64,000 bases of DNA from Bacilli bacterium (GCA_050953065.1 JBMNLZ010000002.1:125906-189905); one strand, 5' to 3'. Positions 5,079 through 26,498 are shown, counted from the stretch's first letter. Translations and numbers: made by a program. Notes: generated by a model not told the origin, from the sequence alone.

Positions 5079-7973
5079 ATGAATCTTAAAAAAATTATTA
5101 TTAGTTTTGTAGTATTGTTTTTAGGAGTAGTTTTGGTAGCATGTGATAAAGAGGTAGAAAACCTTGCTGAAACATATATCCAAAACATCAATCTTCTAAA
5201 TCCAGCAGCAATTGTTGATGATATTCAATTGCAAAAGAAAATCAGTGGCCAAGGAAGTGTTACTTGGGTATCTGATAATGAAGCGGTAGTTAAAATTGAG
5301 GAGTATGTTGATGAAACTTTAGCCGCAAGTTTCTTTAAAGGTAGTGTTACTAGACCAGCAGTTGGCGAAGAAGATGTTGTCGTAACATTAACAGTAACTT
5401 ATACATTAGATGGACAAACAGCAACTAGAGAAATTAAAATTAAAGTTTTAGCAGAACCAGCTGCTTTGTCAATTTCTGAAATTTTGTCAATGAGTGTAGG
5501 AGATGAAGTTTTAGCAGAAGGTGTTGTTGCAGCACTTACTCCTAAGGGATTCTTACTTAGTGATGAGACAGAAATGATTTATGTTTATCAAAATGCAACA
5601 CCTACAGTTTTAGTAGGTGATACAGTTAAGGTTAGTGGTAAAATTGCAGTATATCATAGCGCTAAACAAATCTCTAATCCAACTATTACTAAATTAAATA
5701 CAGAAGCAGGAACTTATACTTATCCTGAGGCTGTAAAGGTTACAGCAGATTCTTTAGCAAAGCTTTATAATAAAGACAGTAAAAACTTTAATAATCTTTA
5801 TGAAATTAAAGGCATTATTGAATTAAAAGGAACTTATAATGATATCTATATTAAGGATTTTGAAAATCCTGATATCGCAATCTATCTTCAATATAGTTAT
5901 ATTAACGCAGAAAATGCTACTTTATTTAAAGGTAAAAATGGCGCTGTAGTAAGTTTTAAAGCTTATTCAGTATGTCTTGATAATGATTATTATGATGATG
6001 TAGTAGCTTTGATGTATTTAGATCAAACTTTTGTTGAATACACTGATACTGTTGCTTACTTAACAGTTAGTGGAAGAAACATGATTGATATTGTTAATCC
6101 TCGTCAATATGAAGCAACTCTTTATCCTGCAGTAGAAGATACTACAGTTATTTGGTCAACAAGCGATGAAGAAATTGCAACAGTTGATGAAACTGGTAGA
6201 GTAACAGCACTTGCAGTAGGTGAGGTTGATATCATTGCTACAGTTGGTAATATTACTAATAAAAAAACAATTACAGTTGTAGAAGAGTTAGCAGATCCAA
6301 CTACAGTTAATATTGCAGGAGATGCAGAGATTGTTGAGTTTGGTATTGCAAACTATACATCAAGTGTAGAACCAGAAAATGCAGACCCTTCTGTAACATG
6401 GAGTGTTGATGATGAGACTATTGCAACAATAGATCAAACTGGTAAATTAATTGCTAATAAAGTTGGTAAAGTTACAGTTAAAGCAACTGCAACAGGAACT
6501 GAAGTGTTTGGAACTAAAGAAGTTAATGTTGTTGCGATGGAAATATCTGATATTTCAACTTTACTTCCAACATTAAGTGCAACTCCACAAACAGTATCTC
6601 TTAAGGGTGAAATAGTAGGTATTGCTGCTAAAGGTTGGTATTTAGCTGATAGTACTGGATATGTATACATACACCTAAATAAAACTCCAACTGGAGTTAC
6701 AGTAGGTGATACTGTAAGAATTGCAGTTAAGAAAGCTCAAATTTATTTGAATACTAATAACTATGTATATCAAATGGATGCAAGAGGCGATGGTGAAATA
6801 TATGTATATCCTATTGAAGAAGACTTTACTGAAATTCCAACAGTTGACAAAGCAATAGATACTTTTGAATATGATAATAAAACAGATGTAACAAAAGACT
6901 ATGTAGAAGCTATGGGAACTATGGAAGTATATGGCAAAAAGTGGGTTAGCGTTACTGGTAAATTAATTAAATTTGGAAGTTATAATAACCTATATTTAGA
7001 ATCAGCTACTAATAAAGTTATGATTGACTATAATACTGATGCTGAAGCTCTAGCAAGACTTGGATATTTAATAAATGAAACTATTACTTTAAAAGGTTTA
7101 GTATATGGATTTAATAAGACTAATGGTTGGAGTATTACATTCTTTAATAGAGATGGTGACTTAAAACAAGGTGACACTGTTTTAGAAGTTAAACCAACTA
7201 TTATGAAAGTTGATGAAATTAAAAATGAATTAAGAAATTACTATCCAAATCAAGTTGAAGAAAATATAACTCTTGATTTTGCATCAACTTTATATCCTGA
7301 TGCAGCGTTTACTTATTCATCAAATAAACCTGAATCATTAAGTAATGAAGGTATAGTTGTAAGAGGAACTGAAGATGTAGAAGTTACTTTAACTATGTCA
7401 GTTTATTTAGATGGAAATACAGCAGGTGATGCTGATGGAACAATTGACATTGTTATTAATGTAATAGCAGAAGGTGGTGTACCTCTTTCAACAATCTATT
7501 CAACTGGATTTGAAGCAGATGAAGGATTTGTAGCAACTTCAAGTTATCAAAATACTGATCCTAGATACCAAGGAGCAGAAGGTGCACAATGGGCTATCAT
7601 TATGGGTGCTGTTACTACTACAGGTAAAATTACAGATTTACAAAGCTTACAAATGAGATCTTATACTTCGTTACCAGATACATATGGTTCAGCTATTACG
7701 AATTTTAATATCGCTAATGCTCATAAAGTGACATTTAAAGCTAATGCTTATAATAACCCAGGAACTGCATTAAAGGTCTATTACTCAACTGATGGTGGGA
7801 CAACTTGGCTTGGCGAAGAAACATTTACAATTGTTAAAGCAGTAGGCGAATTCACATACAACTTACCAGAAGGCGGAGTTAATAATGTAAGATTTAAGCT
7901 TGAACATGCCCTTAAAGGTGTAGATAATAGATTAACAATTGATGAATTTACAGTAATTGGAATCTCATCATAA
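5079..7973 (+). CDS. Large surface lipoprotein with Ig-like (Big_2-type) domains and repeated OB-fold-like modules
   Basis: Lipobox LVAC; SD AAGGAGG; Big_2-like segments (TVIWSTSDEEIATVDETGRVTALAVGEVDI); repeated GxxVxVxG...GFxLxD...IYVY modules. Confidence 0.6.
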   Translation: MNLKKIIISFVVLFLGVVLVACDKEVENLAETYIQNINLLNPAAIVDDIQLQKKISGQGSVTWVSDNEAVVKIEEYVDETLAASFFKGSVTRPAVGEEDVVVTLTVTYTLDGQTATREIKIKVLAEPAALSISEILSMSVGDEVLAEGVVAALTPKGFLLSDETEMIYVYQNATPTVLVGDTVKVSGKIAVYHSAKQISNPTITKLNTEAGTYTYPEAVKVTADSLAKLYNKDSKNFNNLYEIKGIIELKGTYNDIYIKDFENPDIAIYLQYSYINAENATLFKGKNGAVVSFKAYSVCLDNDYYDDVVALMYLDQTFVEYTDTVAYLTVSGRNMIDIVNPRQYEATLYPAVEDTTVIWSTSDEEIATVDETGRVTALAVGEVDIIATVGNITNKKTITVVEELADPTTVNIAGDAEIVEFGIANYTSSVEPENADPSVTWSVDDETIATIDQTGKLIANKVGKVTVKATATGTEVFGTKEVNVVAMEISDISTLLPTLSATPQTVSLKGEIVGIAAKGWYLADSTGYVYIHLNKTPTGVTVGDTVRIAVKKAQIYLNTNNYVYQMDARGDGEIYVYPIEEDFTEIPTVDKAIDTFEYDNKTDVTKDYVEAMGTMEVYGKKWVSVTGKLIKFGSYNNLYLESATNKVMIDYNTDAEALARLGYLINETITLKGLVYGFNKTNGWSITFFNRDGDLKQGDTVLEVKPTIMKVDEIKNELRNYYPNQVEENITLDFASTLYPDAAFTYSSNKPESLSNEGIVVRGTEDVEVTLTMSVYLDGNTAGDADGTIDIVINVIAEGGVPLSTIYSTGFEADEGFVATSSYQNTDPRYQGAEGAQWAIIMGAVTTTGKITDLQSLQMRSYTSLPDTYGSAITNFNIANAHKVTFKANAYNNPGTALKVYYSTDGGTTWLGEETFTIVKAVGEFTYNLPEGGVNNVRFKLEHALKGVDNRLTIDEFTVIGISS

Positions 7974-11392: not shown

Positions 11393-12349
11393 ATGAATAT
11401 ATATGCTATTATACTGGCAGCCGGCAAAGGCATAAGAATGAATTCTACCCTACCAAAATGTGCTCATAAAGTAATTGGCAAACCAATGGTAGAATATGTT
11501 GTTGATGCTATAAGACATCAAGAAATTACAGAAATTTATACGGTAGTTGGATATCAAAAAGAAGTAATTGAAGAAATACTAAAAAATAAAACTAAATTTG
11601 CTTTTCAAAAAGAACAACTTGGGACTGCTAATGCTGTAAAAAGTTGTGAAGAGTTTTTAAAAGGAAAAGAAGGTGTTACTTTAATTGCGATTGGTGATAT
11701 GCCTTTTATAACTAAAGAAACTTATAAAGAATTACTTGATTTTCATATCAAAAGTAAATCTGATTTAACTGTTTTAACTACGATTCATAAAGACCCAAGT
11801 GGGTATGGAAGAATTGTTAGAAACAGTAAAGGTCAGGTTATGGCAATTGTAGAAGATAAGGATTGTGTTGGCGAACAACGAAACATTAAAGAAATAAATG
11901 CATCTGTATATGTAATAGATAATAAAAAACTTTTTATTTATTTAGAAAAGATTCAAAACGTTAATAAACAAAATGAATATTATTTAACGGATTTAGTGAG
12001 CCTATTTTATGAAGACAATCTAAAAGTTTCAACTTATATTGTAAATGATTATGATGAAATAAGTGGAATCAATGATCAAAATCAACTGGTTAAATTAGAA
12101 GCAATGCTTCAAAAAAGAATTCTAGATAAACATATAATTAATGGTGTTGATATTGTTGATATCAACAGTGTTAAAATAGGTTATGATGTAGAGATTGGCG
12201 AGAATGTTACGATTATGGAAAACGTTGAGATTTTAGGTAAAACTGTAATTGGTAATAATTCAAGCGTTGGACCTAATGCTAGTGTAATTGATTCAAATAT
12301 TTTAGAAGGTTCTAAAATATTTGATACAAAAATTATCAATAATAAATAA
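11393..12349 (+). CDS. GlmU-like sugar-phosphate nucleotidyltransferase, short form (uridyltransferase domain plus only the start of the left-handed beta-helix)
   Basis: N-terminal AIILAAGKGIRM nucleotidyltransferase motif; 318 aa versus about 450 aa expected for GlmU; sits in the glmU position between spoVG and prs. Confidence 0.65.
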   Translation: MNIYAIILAAGKGIRMNSTLPKCAHKVIGKPMVEYVVDAIRHQEITEIYTVVGYQKEVIEEILKNKTKFAFQKEQLGTANAVKSCEEFLKGKEGVTLIAIGDMPFITKETYKELLDFHIKSKSDLTVLTTIHKDPSGYGRIVRNSKGQVMAIVEDKDCVGEQRNIKEINASVYVIDNKKLFIYLEKIQNVNKQNEYYLTDLVSLFYEDNLKVSTYIVNDYDEISGINDQNQLVKLEAMLQKRILDKHIINGVDIVDINSVKIGYDVEIGENVTIMENVEILGKTVIGNNSSVGPNASVIDSNILEGSKIFDTKIINNK

Positions 12350-13727: not shown

Positions 13728-15263
<1,536 letters not shown>

Positions 15264-15463
15264 AAGGAGAAAGGTTAAACCTTTAACCAAAAATTATTTT
15301 AAATTTCTTTGATTTTTTACTCCATCATGTTCTATTTAGTTTTGAGAGACTTTGTCTTTCTAAAATATAGTTTTATTAATAGATCTTTGAAAATTGAATA
15401 GTACTTGTCGCAAGAAAGTAAGAACACTTTTTAAAAATTTTAGTGTTTAAATAAAAAGAATAA

Positions 15464-18327
<2,864 letters not shown>

Positions 18328-18364
18328 TAAAGCGATGAAGTACTATTCAATTTTGAAAGAGAAG

Positions 18365-18475
18365 TATGGTGACAACAGCAAAGTGGAAACACCTGTTCCC
18401 ATCTCGAACACAGAAGTTAAGCACTTTAACGCCGATGATAGTTGGGCTTCCCCGCAAAAGTAGGAAGTTGCCTTA
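18365..18475 (+). rRNA. rrf: 5S ribosomal RNA (ends approximate)
   Basis: Conserved CCTGTTCCCATCTCGAACACAGAAGTTAAGC and GCCGATGATAGT blocks; terminal helix pairing. Confidence 0.9.
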
Positions 18476-18572
18476 CTTCCTTTCTATTAATAAAAAAATA
18501 TATACATTTTAATATTTTTGTGTTAATATCTAATGTAGATAAAAGAGTTACAGATAATTTCACGCAAAAAAT

Positions 18573-18648
18573 GGAGGATTAGCTCAGCTGGGAGAGCATC
18601 TGCCTTACAAGCAGAGGGTCGGCGGTTCGATCCCGTCATCCTCCACCA
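18573..18648 (+). tRNA. tRNA-Val (anticodon TAC)
   Basis: Cloverleaf read by eye; anticodon loop CTTACAA; 3' CCA encoded. Confidence 0.85.
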
Positions 18649-18652
18649 TTGT

Positions 18653-18728
<76 letters not shown>

Positions 18729-18734
18729 TTCTTT

Positions 18735-18810
18735 GTCTCCGTAGCTCAGAAGGTAGAGCAACTGACTTTTAATCAGTGGGTCGGACGTTCGAATCGTCTC
18801 GGAGACACCA
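18735..18810 (+). tRNA. tRNA-Lys (anticodon TTT)
   Basis: Acceptor GTCTCCG/CGGAGAC; anticodon loop CTTTTAA; CCA encoded. Confidence 0.85.
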
Positions 18811-18833
18811 TTTCTCTACCAGATGAAAAATGC

Positions 18834-18920
18834 GCTTGAGTGGCGGAATAGGTAGACGCGCAGGACTTAAAATCCTGTGGTAGCAATACCGTGTGGGTTC
18901 AATTCCCACCTTAAGCACCA
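18834..18920 (+). tRNA. tRNA-Leu (anticodon TAA), long variable arm
   Basis: Anticodon loop CTTAAAA; class II variable arm; CCA encoded. Confidence 0.8.
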
Positions 18921-18936
18921 AAAGTTTTTAAAAGAT

Positions 18937-19012
18937 GGGTCCTTAGCTCAGCTGGGAGAGCGCCTGTTTTGCAAGCAGGAGGCCGACGGTTCGATCCCGT
19001 TAGGATCCACCA
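18937..19012 (+). tRNA. tRNA-Ala (anticodon TGC)
   Basis: Acceptor with G3:U70; anticodon loop TTTGCAA; CCA encoded. Confidence 0.85.
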
Positions 19013-19033
19013 TTTTTTTAAAGATTAGTAACT

Positions 19034-19110
19034 GGCGGTGTAGCTTAGCTGGCTAGAGCGTACGGTTCATACCCGTGAGGTCGGGGGTTCAAATCCCTCC
19101 ACCGCTACCA
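19034..19110 (+). tRNA. tRNA-Met, elongator (anticodon CAT)
   Basis: Close to the remembered Bacillus elongator tRNA-Met (GGCGGTGTAGC...GGTTCATACCCGT). Confidence 0.7.
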
Positions 19111-19115
19111 TAAGC

Positions 19116-19192
19116 GGACCCGTAGCTCAGTTGGTTAGAGCTACCGGCTCATAACCGGTCGGTCGCAGGTTCGAGTCCTGCTGGGTCCACCA
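19116..19192 (+). tRNA. tRNA-Ile2 (anticodon CAT, lysidine-type); Met not excluded
   Basis: CAT anticodon; body resembles the remembered Bacillus tRNA-Ile(LAU) (GGACC...GGCTCATAACCG...GGTTCGAGTCC). Confidence 0.6.
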
Positions 19193-19206
19193 GTTTTAAA
19201 ATGTAC

Positions 19207-19297
19207 GGAGGAATACCCAAGTCCGGCTGAAGGGATCGGTCTTGAAAACCGACAGGCGTGCGAGCGCGCGGGGGTTCGAATCCCTCTTCCTCCGCCA
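19207..19297 (+). tRNA. tRNA-Ser (anticodon TGA)
   Basis: GGAGGAATACCCAAGTCCGGCTGAAGG start; anticodon loop CTTGAAA; long variable arm. Confidence 0.85.
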
Positions 19298-19339
19298 TTT
19301 TATTAAAAATAAATTAAGTTAAATATATAAGCATAACAT

Positions 19340-19415
<76 letters not shown>

Positions 19416-19419
19416 AAAT

Positions 19420-19495
19420 GGTCCCATGGTGTAGTGGTTAACATGCCAGTCTGTCACACTGGAGATCGCGGGTTCAAGTCCCGTTGGGACCGCCA
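19420..19495 (+). tRNA. tRNA-Asp (anticodon GTC)
   Basis: Anticodon loop CTGTCAC; acceptor GGTCCCA/TGGGACC. Confidence 0.85.
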
Positions 19496-19501
19496 TTTTT
19501 T

Positions 19502-19577
19502 GGCTCAGTAGCTCAGTTGGTAGAGCGAAGGACTGAAAATCCTTGTGTCGGTGGTTCAATTCCGCCCTGAGCCACCA
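19502..19577 (+). tRNA. tRNA-Phe (anticodon GAA)
   Basis: Anticodon loop CTGAAAA; acceptor GGCTCAG/CTGAGCC; CCA encoded. Confidence 0.85.
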
Positions 19578-19591
19578 TGTGTTGGAAAAGT

Positions 19592-19627
19592 AAAGGTTTG
19601 ATAATAAAATATCAAACCTTTTTTATA
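19592..19627 (+). terminator. Rho-independent terminator ending the rRNA-tRNA operon
   Basis: Stem AAGGTTTGAT / ATCAAACCTT followed by a T-run. Confidence 0.75.
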
Positions 19628-19641
19628 AAAAAATTATTAAA

Positions 19642-19669
19642 ATAAATGTGGCTTTTAATGCACATTTAT
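19642..19669 (+). promoter_or_regulatory. Perfect 9-bp inverted repeat (ATAAATGTG-N10-CACATTTAT) beside a -10-like element; candidate operator for the HTH-methylase
   Basis: Palindrome read directly; TGATATTAT follows at 19669-19677; about 20 nt upstream of the HTH-methyltransferase start. Confidence 0.45.
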
Positions 19670-19695
19670 GATATTATCTATTTGGGTGATACAAT

Positions 19696-20736
19696 ATGAT
19701 TTTAGATATATTTGGAAATAGAGTTAGAGATTTAAGAAATTCAAAAATGCTTTCTCAAGTAGAGTTTTCTCATTTATCAGGAATAGATAGAACTCAAATT
19801 TCAAAAATAGAACAAGGAAAAATAAATGTGACGCTAGTAACGATTGAAAAAATAAGTGAAGCACTAAATGTTGAAATTAAAGATTTGATGAATATTTCAA
19901 ATGAAAAAAAGATGCGCCCCTTTGTAAAATGGGCAGGAGGTAAAACTCAAATTCTTAGTAAAATTTGTGAGTTAATGCCAAATGAATTTGAAACTTATTT
20001 TGAGCCCTTCGTAGGTGGTGGAGCGTTGTTTTTATATCTTGCTCCTGAAAAAGCATATATAAATGATTCTAATAGTGAATTGATGGGTGCTTACGAATGT
20101 CTAAAAGATCTTAATAAATATACAAAACTATTAAAAATCCTAGAGGAGCATGAAGTAAATCATAGCGAAGAATATTATTATGAAATTCGCGCTTTAGATA
20201 GAAATGATGACTTTGAAAAAATGCCAGTCTATGAAAGAGCTGCTAGAATGATTTATTTAAATAAAGCTTGTTATAATGGACTTTATAGAGTTAATTCTAA
20301 AGGCTATTTTAATGTTCCATCAGGAAGAAAAACTAATGTTAATACATACGACAGAGACAATATGTTATTATTACGAAATTACTTTTTAAATAACGACATC
20401 AATATTTTAAATACTGATTTTGAGGAAGCAGTAAAATCTGCTAAAGAAGGTGATTTTGTATACTTTGATCCTCCATATGATACGTTAGATGAAAAAGATA
20501 CTTTTACTTCTTATTCAAAAGATTCTTTTGGAAAAGAAGCCCAAACAAGGCTTGCTAGAGTTTATCAAGAATTATCTGATAAGGGAGTCAAAGTAATGTT
20601 GAGCAATCACAATACACGATATATAAATGAGTTATACAAAGAATTTAATAAGACGATTATTAAGGCCAAAAGAATGATTAATTCTAACGCAGATGGTCGT
20701 GGAGAAGTAGAAGAAATAATAATCACTAATTATTAG
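19696..20736 (+). CDS. dpnM: N6-adenine DNA methyltransferase, Dam/DpnM family (D12 class), with N-terminal XRE-type HTH domain
   Basis: N-terminal HTH (LSQVEFSHLSGIDRTQISKIEQG); then KWAGGK, FEPFVGGGALF, NGLYRVNSKG, DFVYFDPPY, MLSN motifs matching remembered DpnM. Confidence 0.8.
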   Translation: MILDIFGNRVRDLRNSKMLSQVEFSHLSGIDRTQISKIEQGKINVTLVTIEKISEALNVEIKDLMNISNEKKMRPFVKWAGGKTQILSKICELMPNEFETYFEPFVGGGALFLYLAPEKAYINDSNSELMGAYECLKDLNKYTKLLKILEEHEVNHSEEYYYEIRALDRNDDFEKMPVYERAARMIYLNKACYNGLYRVNSKGYFNVPSGRKTNVNTYDRDNMLLLRNYFLNNDINILNTDFEEAVKSAKEGDFVYFDPPYDTLDEKDTFTSYSKDSFGKEAQTRLARVYQELSDKGVKVMLSNHNTRYINELYKEFNKTIIKAKRMINSNADGRGEVEEIIITNY

Positions 20737-20746
20737 GAGTTAGTAA

Positions 20747-21568
20747 ATGAACTTAAATAGTTTAGAAAAAGATCTATACATAGATTATCCTGAGTTTAAG
20801 TTATTGCTTGGTGATTCTTTTGAAGTATTAAAAAAATTTGAAGTAAAATCTGTTGATATGGTTTTTGCTGATCCACCATATTTCTTATCTAGTGGCGGGA
20901 TATCTTGTCAAAATGGAAAGCAAGTCTTGGTTAATAAAGGTGATTGGGATATAGCAAAAACAATAGAAGAAAAAATTACATATCACCGTGAATGGATAAG
21001 GCTTTGTAGAAATGTATTAAAAGATGATGGGGCTATCTGGATTTCTGCAACTCTACATAGTGTATATGCAATAGGGGTAGCTTTAGAGATGGAAGGTTTT
21101 TCAATTATAAATAATATTATATGGCAGAAAACCAATCCTGCTCCTAATTTAGGATGTAGATGTTTTACGCACTCAACTGAAACAATTATTTGGGCAAGAA
21201 AACAACTGACTAAAAAAAAGAAAGGTAAACATTGTTTTGATTATCAGTTAATGAAAGAAGTTAATGACGGGAAACAAATGAAAGATGTTTGGGAGTTTAG
21301 TGAAGAAGAACCAATCATTTGGAAAATAAGTACTACGCCAAAAAGAGAGAAAAAAGAAGGAAGGCATCCAACTCAAAAGCCGTTAGAACTTTTAAAAAGA
21401 ATTATTCTTGCTTCTACAAAAGAAAACGATATTGTATTAGACCCTTTTAATGGTAGTGGTACAACTGGAATTGCATGTAAAATCTTGAATAGAAATTATA
21501 TAGGAATTGATAATGACGAAGAGTATTTAAATCTAACAAAGAAAAGATATGAGGTAATAAAAGGATGA
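20747..21568 (+). CDS. dpnA: DNA methyltransferase, N4/N6 family, DpnA-like (second methylase of DpnII-type systems)
   Basis: Motifs FADPPYF, WQKTNPAPN, DGKQMKDVW, HPTQKP, LDPFNGSGTTG resembling remembered DpnA. Confidence 0.75.
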   Translation: MNLNSLEKDLYIDYPEFKLLLGDSFEVLKKFEVKSVDMVFADPPYFLSSGGISCQNGKQVLVNKGDWDIAKTIEEKITYHREWIRLCRNVLKDDGAIWISATLHSVYAIGVALEMEGFSIINNIIWQKTNPAPNLGCRCFTHSTETIIWARKQLTKKKKGKHCFDYQLMKEVNDGKQMKDVWEFSEEEPIIWKISTTPKREKKEGRHPTQKPLELLKRIILASTKENDIVLDPFNGSGTTGIACKILNRNYIGIDNDEEYLNLTKKRYEVIKG

Positions 21569-22410
21569 GAAATTTTGAAGAATGGTTAAGCAAATTTAGA
21601 GAAAGTATAGCTGATTATAAATATTACGTTGATTTTGATAAAGTATATAAAGAAGTTGATGAAATAAAAGTTGAATTAAATATAATGAACAGTTTAATCG
21701 GTTCAAAAAATATTGAAACTGATTTTGAAAAGCTACTTAAAGAATATCCTAAAATTTTAAAATGTATTCCCATTTTGCTTGCAAAAAGAGAACGAGAAAT
21801 TATTGCGATAGATGAAGATGGTTCATATAATTTTAATTTTAATAAAATGAATTATTCAATAGATGAATATAAAATGTTTATGAGAAAAACTGGACTTTTT
21901 GAACTTATAGCAAATAGAATAGTTAATAATTTAGTAGATTACGTATTGGGTGTTGAATCGGGGTTAAGTTCAAACGGTAGAAAAAATCGCGGTGGACATT
22001 TAATGGAAAATATCGTTGAAGGTTATTTGAAAAAAGCTAAGTTAACATACGTTAAAGAAATGCTTTCAAAAGATATTGAAAAAACATGGGGGATAGATTT
22101 GTCTAGTATTTCTAGTGATGGTAAAGCTTTAAAAAGATTTGATTTTGTTGTAAAAACAAATGCTTGTATTTATGCTATCGAATGTAATTTTTATAGTAGT
22201 GGAGGTTCAAAATTAAATGAAACTGCACGTAGTTATAAAATGCTTGCCTTAGAGTCAAAAGATATTAAAGGATTTAAGTTTGTTTGGTTTACTGATGGGC
22301 TTGGTTGGAAAACAGCAAAAAACAATCTAAAAGAAACATTTGATGTGTTAGAAGATTTGTACTCCATTGATGATTTAGAGAAGGACATAATTTTAAAAAA
22401 ATTTAAATAA
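21565..22410 (+). CDS. dpnB: Type II restriction endonuclease, DpnII/MboI family (predicted GATC specificity)
   Basis: Colinear with remembered DpnII (NIMNSLIGSKNI, NGRKNRGG, KRFDFV, SKLNETARSYKM); 4-nt overlap with upstream methylase. Confidence 0.75.
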   Translation: MRNFEEWLSKFRESIADYKYYVDFDKVYKEVDEIKVELNIMNSLIGSKNIETDFEKLLKEYPKILKCIPILLAKREREIIAIDEDGSYNFNFNKMNYSIDEYKMFMRKTGLFELIANRIVNNLVDYVLGVESGLSSNGRKNRGGHLMENIVEGYLKKAKLTYVKEMLSKDIEKTWGIDLSSISSDGKALKRFDFVVKTNACIYAIECNFYSSGGSKLNETARSYKMLALESKDIKGFKFVWFTDGLGWKTAKNNLKETFDVLEDLYSIDDLEKDIILKKFK

Positions 22411-22456
22411 AAGTAAAAACCATTTCTTTAATAATATATATTAAAGAGGTGGTTTT

Positions 22457-23173
22457 TTGTTATATAATGGTGATTGTATAGAAGTAATGAAATCTATTGA
22501 AAGTAAGAGTGTCGATATGATCTTTGCAGATCCGCCCTACTTTCTTTCTAATGATGGTAAAAGTATTTCAAGTGGTAAGATAGTATCTGTTAATAAGGGT
22601 GAATGGGATAAAAGAAAGAATTATGAAAGTGTTGAAGTGTTCACTAAAGAATGGTTAAGTGAATGTTTTAGAATATTAAAAGATAAGTGTAGTATTTGGG
22701 TATCAGGAACACATCACAATATTTTTAATGTTAAAAGAATAATGGATGAAATAGGATTTAAAATAATAAATATAGTGATATGGAAAAAGATAGATCCGCC
22801 GCCTTTAATATATAAAAACAAATTAAGATTTTCGTATGAGTTTATTATTTGGGCTGATAAGGGTAAGGGGCATATTTTTAATTATAATGATATGTATAAA
22901 ATTGCTAATGAGGAGTTAGAAGATGTTTGGATTTTACCGTCTGTTCATATGAACGAAAAGAAATATGGCTATCATCCTACTCAAAAACCAGAATGTCTAT
23001 TAGAAAGAATTATAAAAGCATCTACGAATAAAGGTCAGTTAGTATTAGATCCTTTTATGGGAAGTGGAACAACTTGTGTGGTTGCTAAAAGATTAGGTAG
23101 AAAATTTATAGGAATAGAAAAAGAAAAAATGTTTTATTTAAATTCATGCAAAAGGATTGAAAATCAACTATAA
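22457..23173 (+). CDS. Second N4/N6-family DNA methyltransferase (DpnA paralog); probable TTG start
   Basis: N-terminus LYNGDCIEVMK; FADPPYF, HPTQKP, LDPFMGSGTT motifs; SD AAAGAGGTGG upstream. Confidence 0.7.
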   Translation: MLYNGDCIEVMKSIESKSVDMIFADPPYFLSNDGKSISSGKIVSVNKGEWDKRKNYESVEVFTKEWLSECFRILKDKCSIWVSGTHHNIFNVKRIMDEIGFKIINIVIWKKIDPPPLIYKNKLRFSYEFIIWADKGKGHIFNYNDMYKIANEELEDVWILPSVHMNEKKYGYHPTQKPECLLERIIKASTNKGQLVLDPFMGSGTTCVVAKRLGRKFIGIEKEKMFYLNSCKRIENQL

Positions 23174-23268
23174 TGGAAAAACAATATAAACCCACTTTTA
23201 TTTTTATTTAAAGTAGGTTTATTTTTTTTAATTAATGCTTAAACTATTAAGTTAAATATGGTAAAATT

Positions 23269-25668
23269 ATGAGAGTGGAGGTAGATATGAAAAAAACTTT
23301 ATTGATGATATTAGTATTATTAAGTGTAGTACTAGTTGGATGTAAAAAGGTGGAAGCAATTTTTACTATAACTTATAATTTAAATGAAGGAATATTACCT
23401 AGTGGGGCTAAAGAATCTTTTACAGAAAAAGAACTTCCTTTACAGTTAGATATACCAACTAAAGAAGGTTATATTTTTTGGGGATGGTATGAAAAAGTTG
23501 ATTTTAGTGGTGATGCGATTACTGCTTTAACTGAGGCTAAAAACTATATATTATTTGCTTTATGGGAGGAAGAAGAAGTAATTCCTGCAACATATACTAT
23601 AACTTATAATTTAAATGGTGGTAAGAATGTAAAAGCAAATAAGGATAGTTTTAAAGAAAGTGATTTACCACTTGAATTAAGAGGTGCTACTAAACAATAT
23701 TTTACATTTTTAGGATGGTATAAGACTCCTGATTTTAGCGGTGAAGTAGTTACATCTATTACTAAAGAAGGTAATGTTACACTTTATGCTAAGTGGGATA
23801 AAGGTCAAAATATAATTGATTATGATTTAGATGGTGGCGATTGGCCTTATACATATCCTTTTGAAGATAGAAGTGATATGGTAGGTGAGTTTATTACTGA
23901 TATTAATGCAGCGCTTGGTTTATCAACTTCAGCTTCATCTTTCTTTTCAACAGGAACATATGGAAAAGATGTTGCAAGTTTTTTTACAATGGAAGCTTAT
24001 AAAGATAAGTGGGGTTGGTTTAAAACTTATATTATAAATGTTGCAACAAGTCAAGGATATGCTAGTATGTCAGGTCTTAATTCAGGAGATAGTGCAATTT
24101 GGAGAAGTAATATTGATTCGTTTTTAAATAGCACTCAAAGAAGCGAATATCCAGTTAGTGCTAATTTTACAACTGAGGCTGCAGCAAATGGTTTTTGGGA
24201 TTTAATTAAAATAGGTCCTATTATTACTACAACTTATGTTGAAATTACTGAAGATATTACTTTAATTAATCCAGTTAGAAATGGCTATAATTTTTCTTGT
24301 TGGGTTGATGAAGATAACAATCCTATTACAGTAATTAAAAAAGGGACAGAAGGTTACTATAAAGTAAGGGCTGTTTGGGATGCAAGAATTTTCCCAACTG
24401 AAATTGTTATTAATAATCCTCTAACTGCATCTTTAGATAAAGGCGATACTTGGGATTTAGATATTAGCCTATTACCATTTAATGTTGAAGAAACAGACCT
24501 TAATATGGTAAGTAGTAATGAACATATTGTTAGTATTGAGGATGGTATTTTAGAAGCATATGCATATGGGGCAGTTACTATTACAATAGCATCTGTTTAT
24601 AATAGTAGTGCTACTACTACATTTAATGTTACAGTTGCTCCAGCCTTAACTGAAGGAGTTCCTGTAATCTTTAATTCATATGGAACATATCTAAATGCTG
24701 TTATTAAAAAAGGTGAAGCATTTGATTTGTCTGAAGGAATTTATGCATATGAATTAAATGCAGGCGATGTAACTAAAGATATTACAATTAAACTTAATGG
24801 CTATTCTAATCAAGTAGTTGGAAACTATAAAGTCGAATATGAAGTTTTAGTTGGTGGTGCTAAAGCAACACTTGAAAGAAATATAATCGTTAATGAATTT
24901 ATTTGGGTCGGACATCGTGGCTGTAATGATGAATGTGTAAGTAATACAATTGAGGCTTTTGAAAAAGGCATTGCAAGAGGCTATAAAGCTTTAGAATGTG
25001 ATATTAAAGTAACTAAAGATAATCAGTTTGTAATCTTCCATAATGGTTATTTAAATGATGCAACAGGAGAAAAAGTATTAACTGAACCATATCAAGCAAC
25101 AACACCAGAATCTAAAACACTAGCAGAACTACAAGCTATGACAGTTAGTCAAACAAGAACTACTCCATCAGGAACATATACTGGTCAAATTGCAAGTTTA
25201 GGAGAGTTTTTAGATTTATGTAAAACAAATGATATCATTGCTGTTATTGAAATCAAATGGACAACAGGGTTAAATACTAGTGATACTAGTAATGTTGAAA
25301 CATTAGTTGAGTTTGTTAAGAGTAAGGGATGGTATGAAAAAACTGTCTTTATGACTTCAATGAGAGCTGTATTAGATGCTATTAGAATAAAATACAGTGA
25401 TGCTACACTCCAATGGTTATGTGGTGCTCAGGCAACCTATGATTCATATAAAGATTGGGCTATTACAAATAGAATTTCTCTTGATATTGCATATGGACTT
25501 TTAACTGAAGATATAGTTACTGAATTCCATAGTAATGGTTTATTAGTAAATTCATATACTCTAAACACTACAAATATTGCTACTACTCAAATTAATTATG
25601 GAGTTGATATGATCACGACTGATTATTTATATCATAATGGTGGTGTAGTTGCTAAAAAATTCTCTTAA
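23269..25668 (+). CDS. Surface lipoprotein with Listeria-Bacteroides-type repeats and a C-terminal glycerophosphodiester phosphodiesterase (GDPD) domain
   Basis: Lipobox LVGC; repeats (TYNLNGG...GWY...LYAKW); GDPD-like HRGCNDECVSNTIEAFE...ECDIKVTKDNQFVIFHN. Confidence 0.65.
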   Translation: MRVEVDMKKTLLMILVLLSVVLVGCKKVEAIFTITYNLNEGILPSGAKESFTEKELPLQLDIPTKEGYIFWGWYEKVDFSGDAITALTEAKNYILFALWEEEEVIPATYTITYNLNGGKNVKANKDSFKESDLPLELRGATKQYFTFLGWYKTPDFSGEVVTSITKEGNVTLYAKWDKGQNIIDYDLDGGDWPYTYPFEDRSDMVGEFITDINAALGLSTSASSFFSTGTYGKDVASFFTMEAYKDKWGWFKTYIINVATSQGYASMSGLNSGDSAIWRSNIDSFLNSTQRSEYPVSANFTTEAAANGFWDLIKIGPIITTTYVEITEDITLINPVRNGYNFSCWVDEDNNPITVIKKGTEGYYKVRAVWDARIFPTEIVINNPLTASLDKGDTWDLDISLLPFNVEETDLNMVSSNEHIVSIEDGILEAYAYGAVTITIASVYNSSATTTFNVTVAPALTEGVPVIFNSYGTYLNAVIKKGEAFDLSEGIYAYELNAGDVTKDITIKLNGYSNQVVGNYKVEYEVLVGGAKATLERNIIVNEFIWVGHRGCNDECVSNTIEAFEKGIARGYKALECDIKVTKDNQFVIFHNGYLNDATGEKVLTEPYQATTPESKTLAELQAMTVSQTRTTPSGTYTGQIASLGEFLDLCKTNDIIAVIEIKWTTGLNTSDTSNVETLVEFVKSKGWYEKTVFMTSMRAVLDAIRIKYSDATLQWLCGAQATYDSYKDWAITNRISLDIAYGLLTEDIVTEFHSNGLLVNSYTLNTTNIATTQINYGVDMITTDYLYHNGGVVAKKFS

Positions 25669-25694
25669 AAAAAGTTTTTAAAAAGGAAAAAAGA

Positions 25695-26498
25695 ATGAGA
25701 AAATTAGGAATTTGTTTATCAGGTGGTGGCGGAAGAGGTGCCTATCAAATAGGTGCCTTAGTAGCCTTAAAAGAATTAGGAATATTAGATAAAGCGAGTT
25801 ATTATTCAGGAACATCAATTGGCTCGGTAAATGCTGTAATGGTTGCGACTTCATCTTTAGAAAATGCAAGAGATATTTGGTTAAATATACCAGAAGACTC
25901 TTTAAAAAAGAATGAAAATTTTTTTAAAGAATTAAGAGAAGTAGGGTATAAGTTTCCAAAAAGCGGTCTATATGAAATGGATTTATTAGAAGAGATTCTA
26001 ATAGAAAATGTTGATATCGACAAATTAAATGTAGAGGATATATTTGTAGCGATTGGATATGGTGGAGATAGTGAGAAAGGCTTTAGATTAATAAAAAACA
26101 CATATAAACACTATATAAAAAAAGAATCTAGAATTATTTATAAAAGTTTGAAAAACTTAAATCAAAAAGATGCAATTGAAGCTGTTAGAATGTCTTGTTC
26201 AATTCCAATAGTTTTTCCAAGCGTTATAAAAGATGGCAAGAAATATTATGATGGTGGAATCTATGATAATGTTCCAGTAGAACCTTTAGTAAAAGCAGGG
26301 TGTGAAGAAATCATAGTAATACATTTACATAAGATACATTTCTTTAGGCCTAAGAAATATCCTAAAGTTGTATTTCATGAAATAAAACATAAAGGACTAA
26401 TGGGAAGCATTTTAAATTTTACTAAAGAACATTCTCAAAAATTATATCAATATGGCTATGATGATGTAATGAATTATTATAATAAAAAAGAAAAATAA
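25695..26498 (+). CDS. Patatin-like phospholipase
   Basis: Oxyanion-hole glycine motif LSGGGGRGAYQIG; nucleophile elbow GTSIGS; DGG near C-terminal part. Confidence 0.8.
   Translation: MRKLGICLSGGGGRGAYQIGALVALKELGILDKASYYSGTSIGSVNAVMVATSSLENARDIWLNIPEDSLKKNENFFKELREVGYKFPKSGLYEMDLLEEILIENVDIDKLNVEDIFVAIGYGGDSEKGFRLIKNTYKHYIKKESRIIYKSLKNLNQKDAIEAVRMSCSIPIVFPSVIKDGKKYYDGGIYDNVPVEPLVKAGCEEIIVIHLHKIHFFRPKKYPKVVFHEIKHKGLMGSILNFTKEHSQKLYQYGYDDVMNYYNKKEK

Follow-up and report, generated by a model that had tools for sequence, protein, structure and literature searches.

A DpnII-family operon with an HTH-fused Dam methylase and a third, hairpin-preceded methylase in a Bacilli bacterium

Genes of the cassette

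The DNA analyzed here is a stretch of 64,000 nucleotides from a GenBank metagenome-assembled genome of Bacilli bacterium (GCA_050953065.1 JBMNLZ010000002.1:125906-189905; hereafter the window, with positions counted from its first letter). It carries at 19642-23173 a DpnII-type restriction-modification cassette of four genes, all of them intact and co-directional on the + strand. The first gene, M1 (19696-20736, 346 aa), codes for a Dam/DpnM-type methylase with a helix-turn-helix (HTH) domain in front of it. It is followed by M2 (20747-21568, 273 aa), a beta-class N6-adenine methylase of the DpnA clade, by R (21565-22410, 281 aa), a full-length type II restriction endonuclease of the DpnII family, and by M3 (22457-23173, 238 aa, TTG start codon), a third methylase, short, also beta-class N6-adenine, and belonging to a distinct clade. 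The stop codon of M2 and the start codon of R share 4 nt (ATGA). M3 lies directly downstream of the nuclease gene, with 46 nt from the stop codon of R to its own start, and this spacer holds a terminator-like hairpin.

R matches the DpnII profile PF04556 with an E value of 1.2e-106, covering profile positions 1-276 of 278. In Pfam, M1 consists of HTH_3 (aa 10-63, E 1.7e-13) and MethyltransfD12 (PF02086, aa 79-327, E 5e-61); it scores 277 bits against the NCBIfam model TIGR00571 (dam), whose cutoff is 115, and its closest solved structure is DpnM (2dpm, E 9e-76). Both M2 and M3 match N6_N4_Mtase (E 6e-62 and 5e-58, respectively) and have CcrM (6pbd) as the closest solved structure (E 2e-55 and 1e-55). 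The motifs follow the same division, with FxGxG preceding DPPY in M1 (alpha class), and DPPY near the N-terminus and FxGxG near the C-terminus in M2 and M3 (beta class). Because the family matches are far beyond chance, the DpnII-type cassette proposed by the first-pass annotation, made from the sequence alone, is confirmed. The open reading frames (ORFs) and the Pfam, NCBIfam, and structure matches agree on four co-directional genes at this place, and the profile searches found all four proteins to be DpnM/DpnA/DpnII-family or beta-methylase homologs. Together with the alignments and folds, they bear out an HTH-fused DpnM, a DpnA-like methylase, a DpnII-family nuclease, and a further beta methylase placed after a hairpin. 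We conclude that the cassette is a genuine, intact DpnII-family operon in which every part comes from a well-known family. All four genes are under purifying selection, with ratios of nonsynonymous to synonymous divergence (dN/dS) of 0.08-0.15 against the orthologs in the related locus L007 (0.15 for R and 0.09 for M3).

The first three genes are of the same families and in the same order (alpha Dam-type methylase, beta methylase, PF04556 nuclease) as dpnM-dpnA-dpnB of Streptococcus pneumoniae, where DpnM methylates double-stranded DNA and DpnA, which is competence-induced, methylates single-stranded DNA (PMC3573125). The cassette departs from the pneumococcal one in the N-terminal HTH domain of M1, in the presence of M3 after the nuclease, and in the lack of a cin-box upstream of M2, the only copy of TACGAATA being found within M3 at 23023 (the cin-box is a streptococcal feature and does not define the family). 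A three-gene set of Dam, beta methylase, and nuclease is also present in the lactococcal plasmid pSRQ700 (NC_002798.1), whose Dam and beta methylase are 48% identical to M1 and 59.4% identical to M2. This set, which we take to be the LlaDCHI system (Moineau 1995, cited in PMC4132740), differs in that it is plasmid-borne, its Dam has no HTH domain, and it includes no third methylase. M2 is similarly close (59.8% identity) to Staphylococcus plasmid homologs located in Dam-beta methylase-nuclease cassettes, and it falls inside the DpnA clade of a neighbor-joining tree of 103 beta methylases. By sequence and tree position, M2 is the ortholog of DpnA. Within the operon, M1 would be the methylase of double-stranded DNA, M2 would take the role of DpnA, and R would cut unmethylated GATC; we infer the GATC specificity of M2, M3, and R.

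The HTH fusion and its candidate operator

The HTH domain of M1 (approximately aa 1-70, nt 19696-19905) resembles controller proteins, is in frame with the alpha-class methylase, and has as its top solved-structure matches C.AhdI (E 4e-10) and C.BclI (E 1.6e-7). Contrary to the first-pass annotation, which regarded the fusion as a variant not known to be described, it is carried by 120 out of the 120 best M1 homolog clusters (59-100% identity, 329-370 aa; 8000 hits), each with both the HTH and the D12 domain. These clusters span Mycoplasmopsis synoviae, Bacteroidales, and other Bacilli metagenome-assembled genomes; therefore, the HTH::Dam fusion is a large, established family. The names given to the cluster members are generic only, and M1 itself is deposited in GenBank as MGI6710227.1, 'Dam family ... 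methyltransferase [Bacilli bacterium]'. Fusions of this type have been reported for Mollicutes as well, since Fisunov et al. 2017 list controller-protein::methylase fusions among the type II systems of this group, with predicted binding sites (PMC5282649).

Upstream of M1 there is a palindrome, TGTGGCTTTTAATGCACA (19647-19664), of the form TGTG-N10-CACA, which is a candidate operator and the predicted site for the HTH domain of M1. It can be extended to AAATGTG-N10-CACATTT at 19644-19667, and TGTG-N10-CACA occurs only once in the 64-kb window. Its right arm is overlapped by the first base of an extended -10 element, TATGATATTAT (19667-19677, + strand), a predicted promoter read from the sequence that fits the Mollicutes consensus TRTGNTAWAAT (quoted in PMC5282649) and whose position is kept in the homologous loci. 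When the promoters of Dam genes were compared, TGTG-N8-12-CACA abutting the -10 box was found in eight out of nine distinct HTH-Dam promoters and in none of 47 distinct HTH-less Dam promoters from cassettes of this type. The ninth HTH-Dam promoter, that of M. synoviae, lacks the strict motif and has a degenerate copy of it. The palindrome is thus conserved at the promoters of HTH-Dam genes and exclusive to them.

There is precedent for the regulation that this arrangement suggests. In Mollicutes, the stand-alone HsdC protein of a type I system was shown to bind GTGTTA repeats that overlap a TRTGNTAWAAT promoter, and it behaves as a repressor (PMC5282649). The 'Type II fusion' of the same paper has an N-terminal controller-like HTH on a methylase and a predicted inverted GTGT...ACAC repeat beside the -10 box, like that of M1. 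Its Mycoplasma mobile site, TTGTATATTTTAACACACAAATGTTATAAT, is the same type of motif as TGTG-N10-CACA and shares a 17-nt run with the promoter of L162, one of the metagenomic loci described below, although the paper describes neither the DpnII gene set nor a third methylase. Considering the operator at HTH-Dam promoters and this precedent, we infer that M1 would bind TGTG-N10-CACA and act as a repressor, so that the M1-M2-R transcript would be under negative autoregulation. A single extended -10 promoter would drive M1-M2-R, and the HTH domain would bind the palindrome abutting the -10 box and shut down the whole operon once M1 has accumulated.

The regulator differs from other HTH proteins of restriction-modification systems. 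C.AhdI and C.BclI are Xre-type HTH proteins that regulate such genes, but here the HTH is fused to a 346-aa Dam instead of being a free protein of ~80 aa cotranscribed with the nuclease, and the operator is TGTG-N10-CACA and not a C-box with a GACT/AGTC core (C-box as in PMC5282649). Methylases with an HTH are known too, M.Ecl18kI being an autoregulatory methylase with a fused HTH (PMC2760811). However, M.Ecl18kI and M.SsoII, both autoregulatory and HTH-bearing, are C5-cytosine methylases with divergent nuclease and methylase genes, whereas M1 is an alpha-class N6-adenine methylase that heads a single co-directional operon.

Other HTH-Dam loci show further variation. In L022 (~1360-1500) and L024 (~2015-2160), five direct repeats of ACAATTTAACGATTA with short spacers are found upstream of the TGTG...CACA operator of the HTH-Dam gene. 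They match the controller-protein motif of Acholeplasma type (AACGATT, N12, three copies; Fisunov et al. 2017), which suggests that another regulator binds there or that a neighboring system has its operator there. In the Bacteroidales loci L012 (5631-6948) and L013 (5828-7145), a Pycsar-like pair (Guanylate_cyc and PycTM) comes after the HTH-Dam/DpnA/DpnII cassette, in what looks like a small defense island. In M. synoviae (L004-L006, 6001-8617), the stretch of ~720 nt between the HTH-Dam and DpnII genes contains nothing but a DpnA-like remnant (35% identity, 7109-7546), and the middle methylase appears to have decayed there.

The third methylase and the hairpin in front of it

The first-pass annotation took M2 and M3 for two DpnA-like methylases, one of them a diverged duplicate. 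This stands for M2, but M3 is placed elsewhere. The two proteins are 44% identical, M3 is hardly closer to the beta methylase of pSRQ700 (46.6%), and in the tree it forms part of a clade of its own, outside the DpnA clade and outside the clade of methylases that follow the nuclease in the MboI gene order. A recent duplication of DpnA is thereby ruled out, given that the M3 clade is separate and branches outside the DpnA clade. The MboI order (Dam, nuclease, beta methylase) has a beta methylase directly after a DpnII-family nuclease, as do many metagenomic cassettes, and the named MboI example, reportedly the subject of work by Ueno in 1993, is said to have two methylases. The position of M3 fits this order, but its place in the tree does not; besides, M3 junctions have a hairpin, and the cassette in the window also includes a methylase in the DpnA position. 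Finally, M3 is not a GANTC enzyme of the CcrM/HinfI type. CcrM of Caulobacter, which recognizes GANTC, shares the beta-class motif order, but M2 and M3 lack its C-terminal DNA-binding domain (the match of M3 ends at residue 255 of the 366 of CcrM), M3 has the CcrM-type residue at none of the 21 discriminating columns described below, and GANTC is not depleted in the window. The TTG start of M3 is consistent with its homologs, which keep the N-terminus MLYNGDC, some of them with ATG at the same codon.

Close homologs of M3 (66-98% identity) are numerous in metagenomes. In the plasmid and phage collections, the search for M3-clade homologs gave nothing above 50% identity, and hence no relative that is annotated or characterized. 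A genome scan with M3 alone used peptide patterns that were too query-specific, recovering one close relative, L025, and distant alphaproteobacterial CcrM-like genes that served only as an outgroup. A metagenome scan based on the M3 alignment (patterns ADPPYFLS and VSVNKGEW) added three M3 loci. Most of the 80 loci are DpnA-clade or MboI-order cassettes, because both patterns are common to those beta methylases, and the loci other than the M3 ones served as controls.

The first-pass annotation regarded the four-gene architecture as unusual, yet the exact order M1-M2-R-M3 recurs in seven distinct genomic contexts (the window, L007/L025, L015, L017, L021, L081, and L163), in two of which M1 has no HTH domain, and it can be called common. 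Other arrangements exist as well. In L010, M3 is divergent and located upstream of M1-M2-R; in L080 and L082 the order is M1-X-M3, with a DUF6996/DUF6997/DUF7226 protein (X) in the nuclease position; and L162 has only an HTH-Dam and M3, without a nuclease gene. In all 11 distinct cassettes with an M3-clade gene, the gene has a Dam-type methylase adjacent to it, and the linkage of M3 to Dam-type methylases is thus an observation. Cassettes with M3 are found in GenBank assemblies including GCA_002398145.1, GCA_001577815.1, GCA_040364275.1, and GCA_965339485.1. We found no description of GATC systems with three methylases in the literature searched; the 'third methyltransferase' of Streptococcus mutans was considered as a precedent and proved to be an unrelated orphan enzyme. 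As a module, the third methylase recurs and evolves separately, and the searchable literature, within which REBASE does not fall, gave no description of it.

Some of these loci deserve a separate comment. In L162 (1948-5720), the HTH-Dam and M3 genes diverge from one operator-containing intergenic region, and they have as neighbors a T5orf172 gene, an OLD-TOPRIM/ABC ATPase, and a zeta toxin; L017-L020 likewise have a T5orf172 gene, located after M3. The X protein (L080, 1629-2912; L082, 3682-4950; 422-427 aa), which the same M3 module follows, has a D-x13-EAK motif resembling the PD-(D/E)xK nuclease signature and had no match among solved structures, NCBIfam models, or the literature; it is a candidate restriction endonuclease, possibly one acting on GATC. 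In L122 (3217-4897), the Dam gene and the beta methylase flank two tandem genes for DpnII-family nucleases, an arrangement similar to that of SsuDAT1I, a system with two nucleases.

The hairpin between R and M3, already noticed in the first-pass annotation, is made up of 19 pairs followed by a T-run (22415-22457, + strand) and folds with -19.8 kcal/mol and z = -6.7. The Shine-Dalgarno sequence of M3 (GAGGTGG) lies within its 3' arm, and the T-run extends into the TTG start codon. An equivalent hairpin is present at seven out of seven R-to-M3 junctions (z between -4.3 and -11.9), with different stem sequences but always with the Shine-Dalgarno sequence paired in the 3' arm. It is also found, by single-sequence folds only, at the two X-to-M3 junctions. 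In contrast, none of the seven measurable MboI-order junctions has one (z from -0.5 to +0.9), since the genes overlap or abut there or the junction has no significant structure. In the alignment, six pairs of the stem show compensatory changes; consensus folding gave only partial support because the MAFFT alignment was not structure aware, and single-sequence folds were used instead. The hairpin is therefore conserved at M3 junctions, and its presence at all R-to-M3 junctions and absence from the MboI-order ones make it, by sequence comparison, part of the M3 module.

Being similar to an intrinsic terminator and pairing with the ribosome-binding site of M3, the hairpin would gate M3, which would be made only from read-through transcripts on which the stem is possibly, or even probably, opened by ribosomes finishing R. 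The structure would in this way restrict the synthesis of M3 and couple it to the translation of R. Two observations tell against this coupling: the nuclease stop codon and the hairpin are ~4 to ~15 nt apart, depending on the locus, which weakens the idea of a terminating ribosome, and a -10-like hexamer in the AT-rich loop could give M3 a transcript of its own. Accordingly, the hairpin may instead be a plain terminator of M1-M2-R, and M3 a separate unit with a promoter in or near the loop, whose mRNA would not include the 5' arm and would be open to translation, uncoupled from R. A stem with a T-run is what an intrinsic terminator looks like, the loops are AT-rich with -10-like hexamers, and M3 is independent and divergently transcribed in L010 and L162. 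Nevertheless, a plain terminator would not need the Shine-Dalgarno sequence always in the 3' arm and the T-run always running into the start codon across unrelated stem sequences, and the search of the loops gave no consistent promoter motif. We consider this alternative possible, if clearly the less probable one, and the gating of M3 by the hairpin remains our preferred reading.

The specificity of M3 was approached through 21 alignment columns at which the DpnA and post-nuclease clades share a conserved residue and CcrM-like proteins differ. M3 agrees with the cassette clades at 18 of them, has a residue of its own at three, and never has that of the CcrM type. The shared columns fall mostly in the segment after DPPY, the equivalent of Loop-2B of CcrM, where M3 is nearly identical to the DpnA-clade enzymes. 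In CcrM, Loop-2B reads G1, A2, and N3, while Loop-45 reads T4 and C5 (PMC6787082). These residues, and its company, suggest that M3 is an active N6-adenine methylase with a functional link to Dam-type systems and, most likely, that it acts on GATC, as would be expected of a clade that travels with Dam-type methylases. Three points count against this assignment. The M3 equivalent of Loop-45 is clade-specific (DPPPLIYKNKFRFSYE versus NPPPNLSCRCFTHSTE), and as a result the recognition of the 3' half-site is not predictable; the 18:0 residue count is confounded in part by shared ancestry; and, with M1 and M2 present, a third GATC methylase would seem superfluous.

In another explanation, M3 reads a sequence other than GATC or has a relaxed specificity. 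Instead of giving a third protection against R.DpnII, it would ride with the Dam cassette as a solitary methylase, with a role, for example, in weakening other restriction systems or in epigenetic regulation. The M3 clade lies outside both beta-methylase clades of the Dam/DpnII-type cassettes, its counterpart of Loop-45, which in CcrM reads the final two bases, resembles neither the other cassette clades nor the CcrM type, L162 retains Dam and M3 without a nuclease, and GATC would already be covered by M1 and M2. Against this, M3-clade genes were found only beside Dam-type methylases (in all 11 cassettes), and in the Dam-X-M3 loci (L080 and L082) M3 is the only beta methylase, at the place held by the second methylase in MboI-order cassettes. 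Its Loop-2B equivalent is nearly that of the DpnA clade, and the plasmid and phage collections gave no close M3 homolog standing alone. On balance, we regard a non-GATC specificity as unlikely, and action on GATC as the better reading of M3. A more specific proposal, tentative and only a little less doubtful, is that the M3 clade has a function of its own as the third component of Dam-type GATC systems and is not a redundant copy. Its synthesis would be tied to the translation of R by the ribosome-opened hairpin, which would at once end transcription and hide the ribosome-binding site, and it would serve as a fail-safe antidote or be specialized for a substrate such as single-stranded or hemimethylated DNA.

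Residence of the operon and its significance

The cassette begins 51 nt after tRNA-Phe, the last of 11 tRNA genes (18573-19577; tRNA-Phe ends at 19577). Directly 5' of this array is an rRNA operon (13728-18476, with the 16S at 13728-15261, the 23S at 15464-18328, and the 5S at 18365-18476), and the rRNA-tRNA operon is closed by a terminator-like hairpin with a T-run (19592-19625, + strand; -13.0 kcal/mol, z = -4.3). On the other side of the cassette, a weak terminator-like hairpin with a T-run (23186-23229, + strand; -8.9 kcal/mol, z = -3.2) comes after M3, one that the consensus terminator scan did not pick up. A 20-nt inverted match that flanks the cassette (19636-19655 and 23188-23207, 85%) was considered as a boundary and treated as chance, because its right arm belongs to the downstream terminator, beyond the conserved block.

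The closest relatives are L007 and L025, whose cassette proteins are 82-86% identical to those of the window. In both, the cassette precedes the same Flg_new-GDPD and patatin genes, but its upstream neighbor is RmuC and not the rRNA-tRNA operon. At the DNA level, homology between the window and L007 extends from 19628, just 3' of the rRNA-tRNA terminator-like hairpin, to 23173 (84%) and resumes at 23179 (77%). The first-pass annotation had interpreted the cassette as an island inserted after the tRNA array and had looked to relatives lacking it for the insertion boundaries; these relatives, however, carry the cassette with the same downstream genes, and synonymous divergence (dS) from L007 is similar in the cassette genes (0.56-1.06) and in the flank genes (0.71-0.76). 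No other 4-bp palindrome of the window is as depleted as GATC (94 observed versus 156 expected, a ratio of 0.60), which suggests long residence; the depletion is moderate and comes from 64 kb only, which limits its force. Taken together, GATC depletion and the similar dS inside and outside fit a GATC system that is active and has been resident for long, the rRNA side having been rearranged. A recently acquired island at the 3' end of the tRNA array would account for the start of the cassette so close to tRNA-Phe, for the same four-gene cassette in unrelated flanks in other lineages, and for the upstream flank that differs from that of the closest relatives, but it is very improbable given the downstream synteny, the dS values, and the GATC depletion, a GC content of 0.26-0.32 both inside and outside the cassette, the lack of any tRNA-derived or other att-like flanking direct repeat, and the absence of integrase or recombinase genes among the ORFs of the window. 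Over longer evolutionary times the cassette does move, as the same cassette in unrelated flanks elsewhere indicates.

The downstream region shows some changes between the two lineages. In L007, an extra 830 bp (11478-12306, with a 177-aa ORF without Pfam hits) separates the stop codon of M3 from the conserved downstream region, where the window has only 23174-23178; this junction has been remodeled in one of the two lineages. Directly 3' of the cassette (23269-26498), the window has a gene of 799 aa with a signal-peptide-like N-terminus, followed by a patatin-like gene. In L001, Flg_new repeats and a GDPD domain were called in a near-identical copy of the 799-aa gene, and the counterparts of the two genes in the relative are 70% and 80% identical at the amino acid level.

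Overall, the reading that we favor, with a probability of roughly 0.7, is that of a chromosomal, long-resident DpnII-family operon specific for GATC, in which M1 would regulate its own transcription, M2 would be the DpnA enzyme, R the cutter, and M3 a hairpin-gated GATC methylase.

The families involved are known throughout, and the understanding of restriction-modification is unchanged by them. What the comparison brings out is a large set of DpnII-type systems in uncultured Bacilli, Mollicutes-like bacteria, and Bacteroidales that are built unlike the textbook cassette of the pneumococcus. Their Dam methylase has a predicted built-in repressor domain and a conserved operator, and one subfamily adds a third methylase clade together with a conserved RNA hairpin. 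If the specificity of M3 and the role of the hairpin were established, they would explain why there are GATC systems with three methylases, and the hairpin, if it acts as proposed, would be a simple new example of posttranscriptional control of the balance between methylase and nuclease. In practical terms, attempts to transform these organisms should expect GATC restriction.

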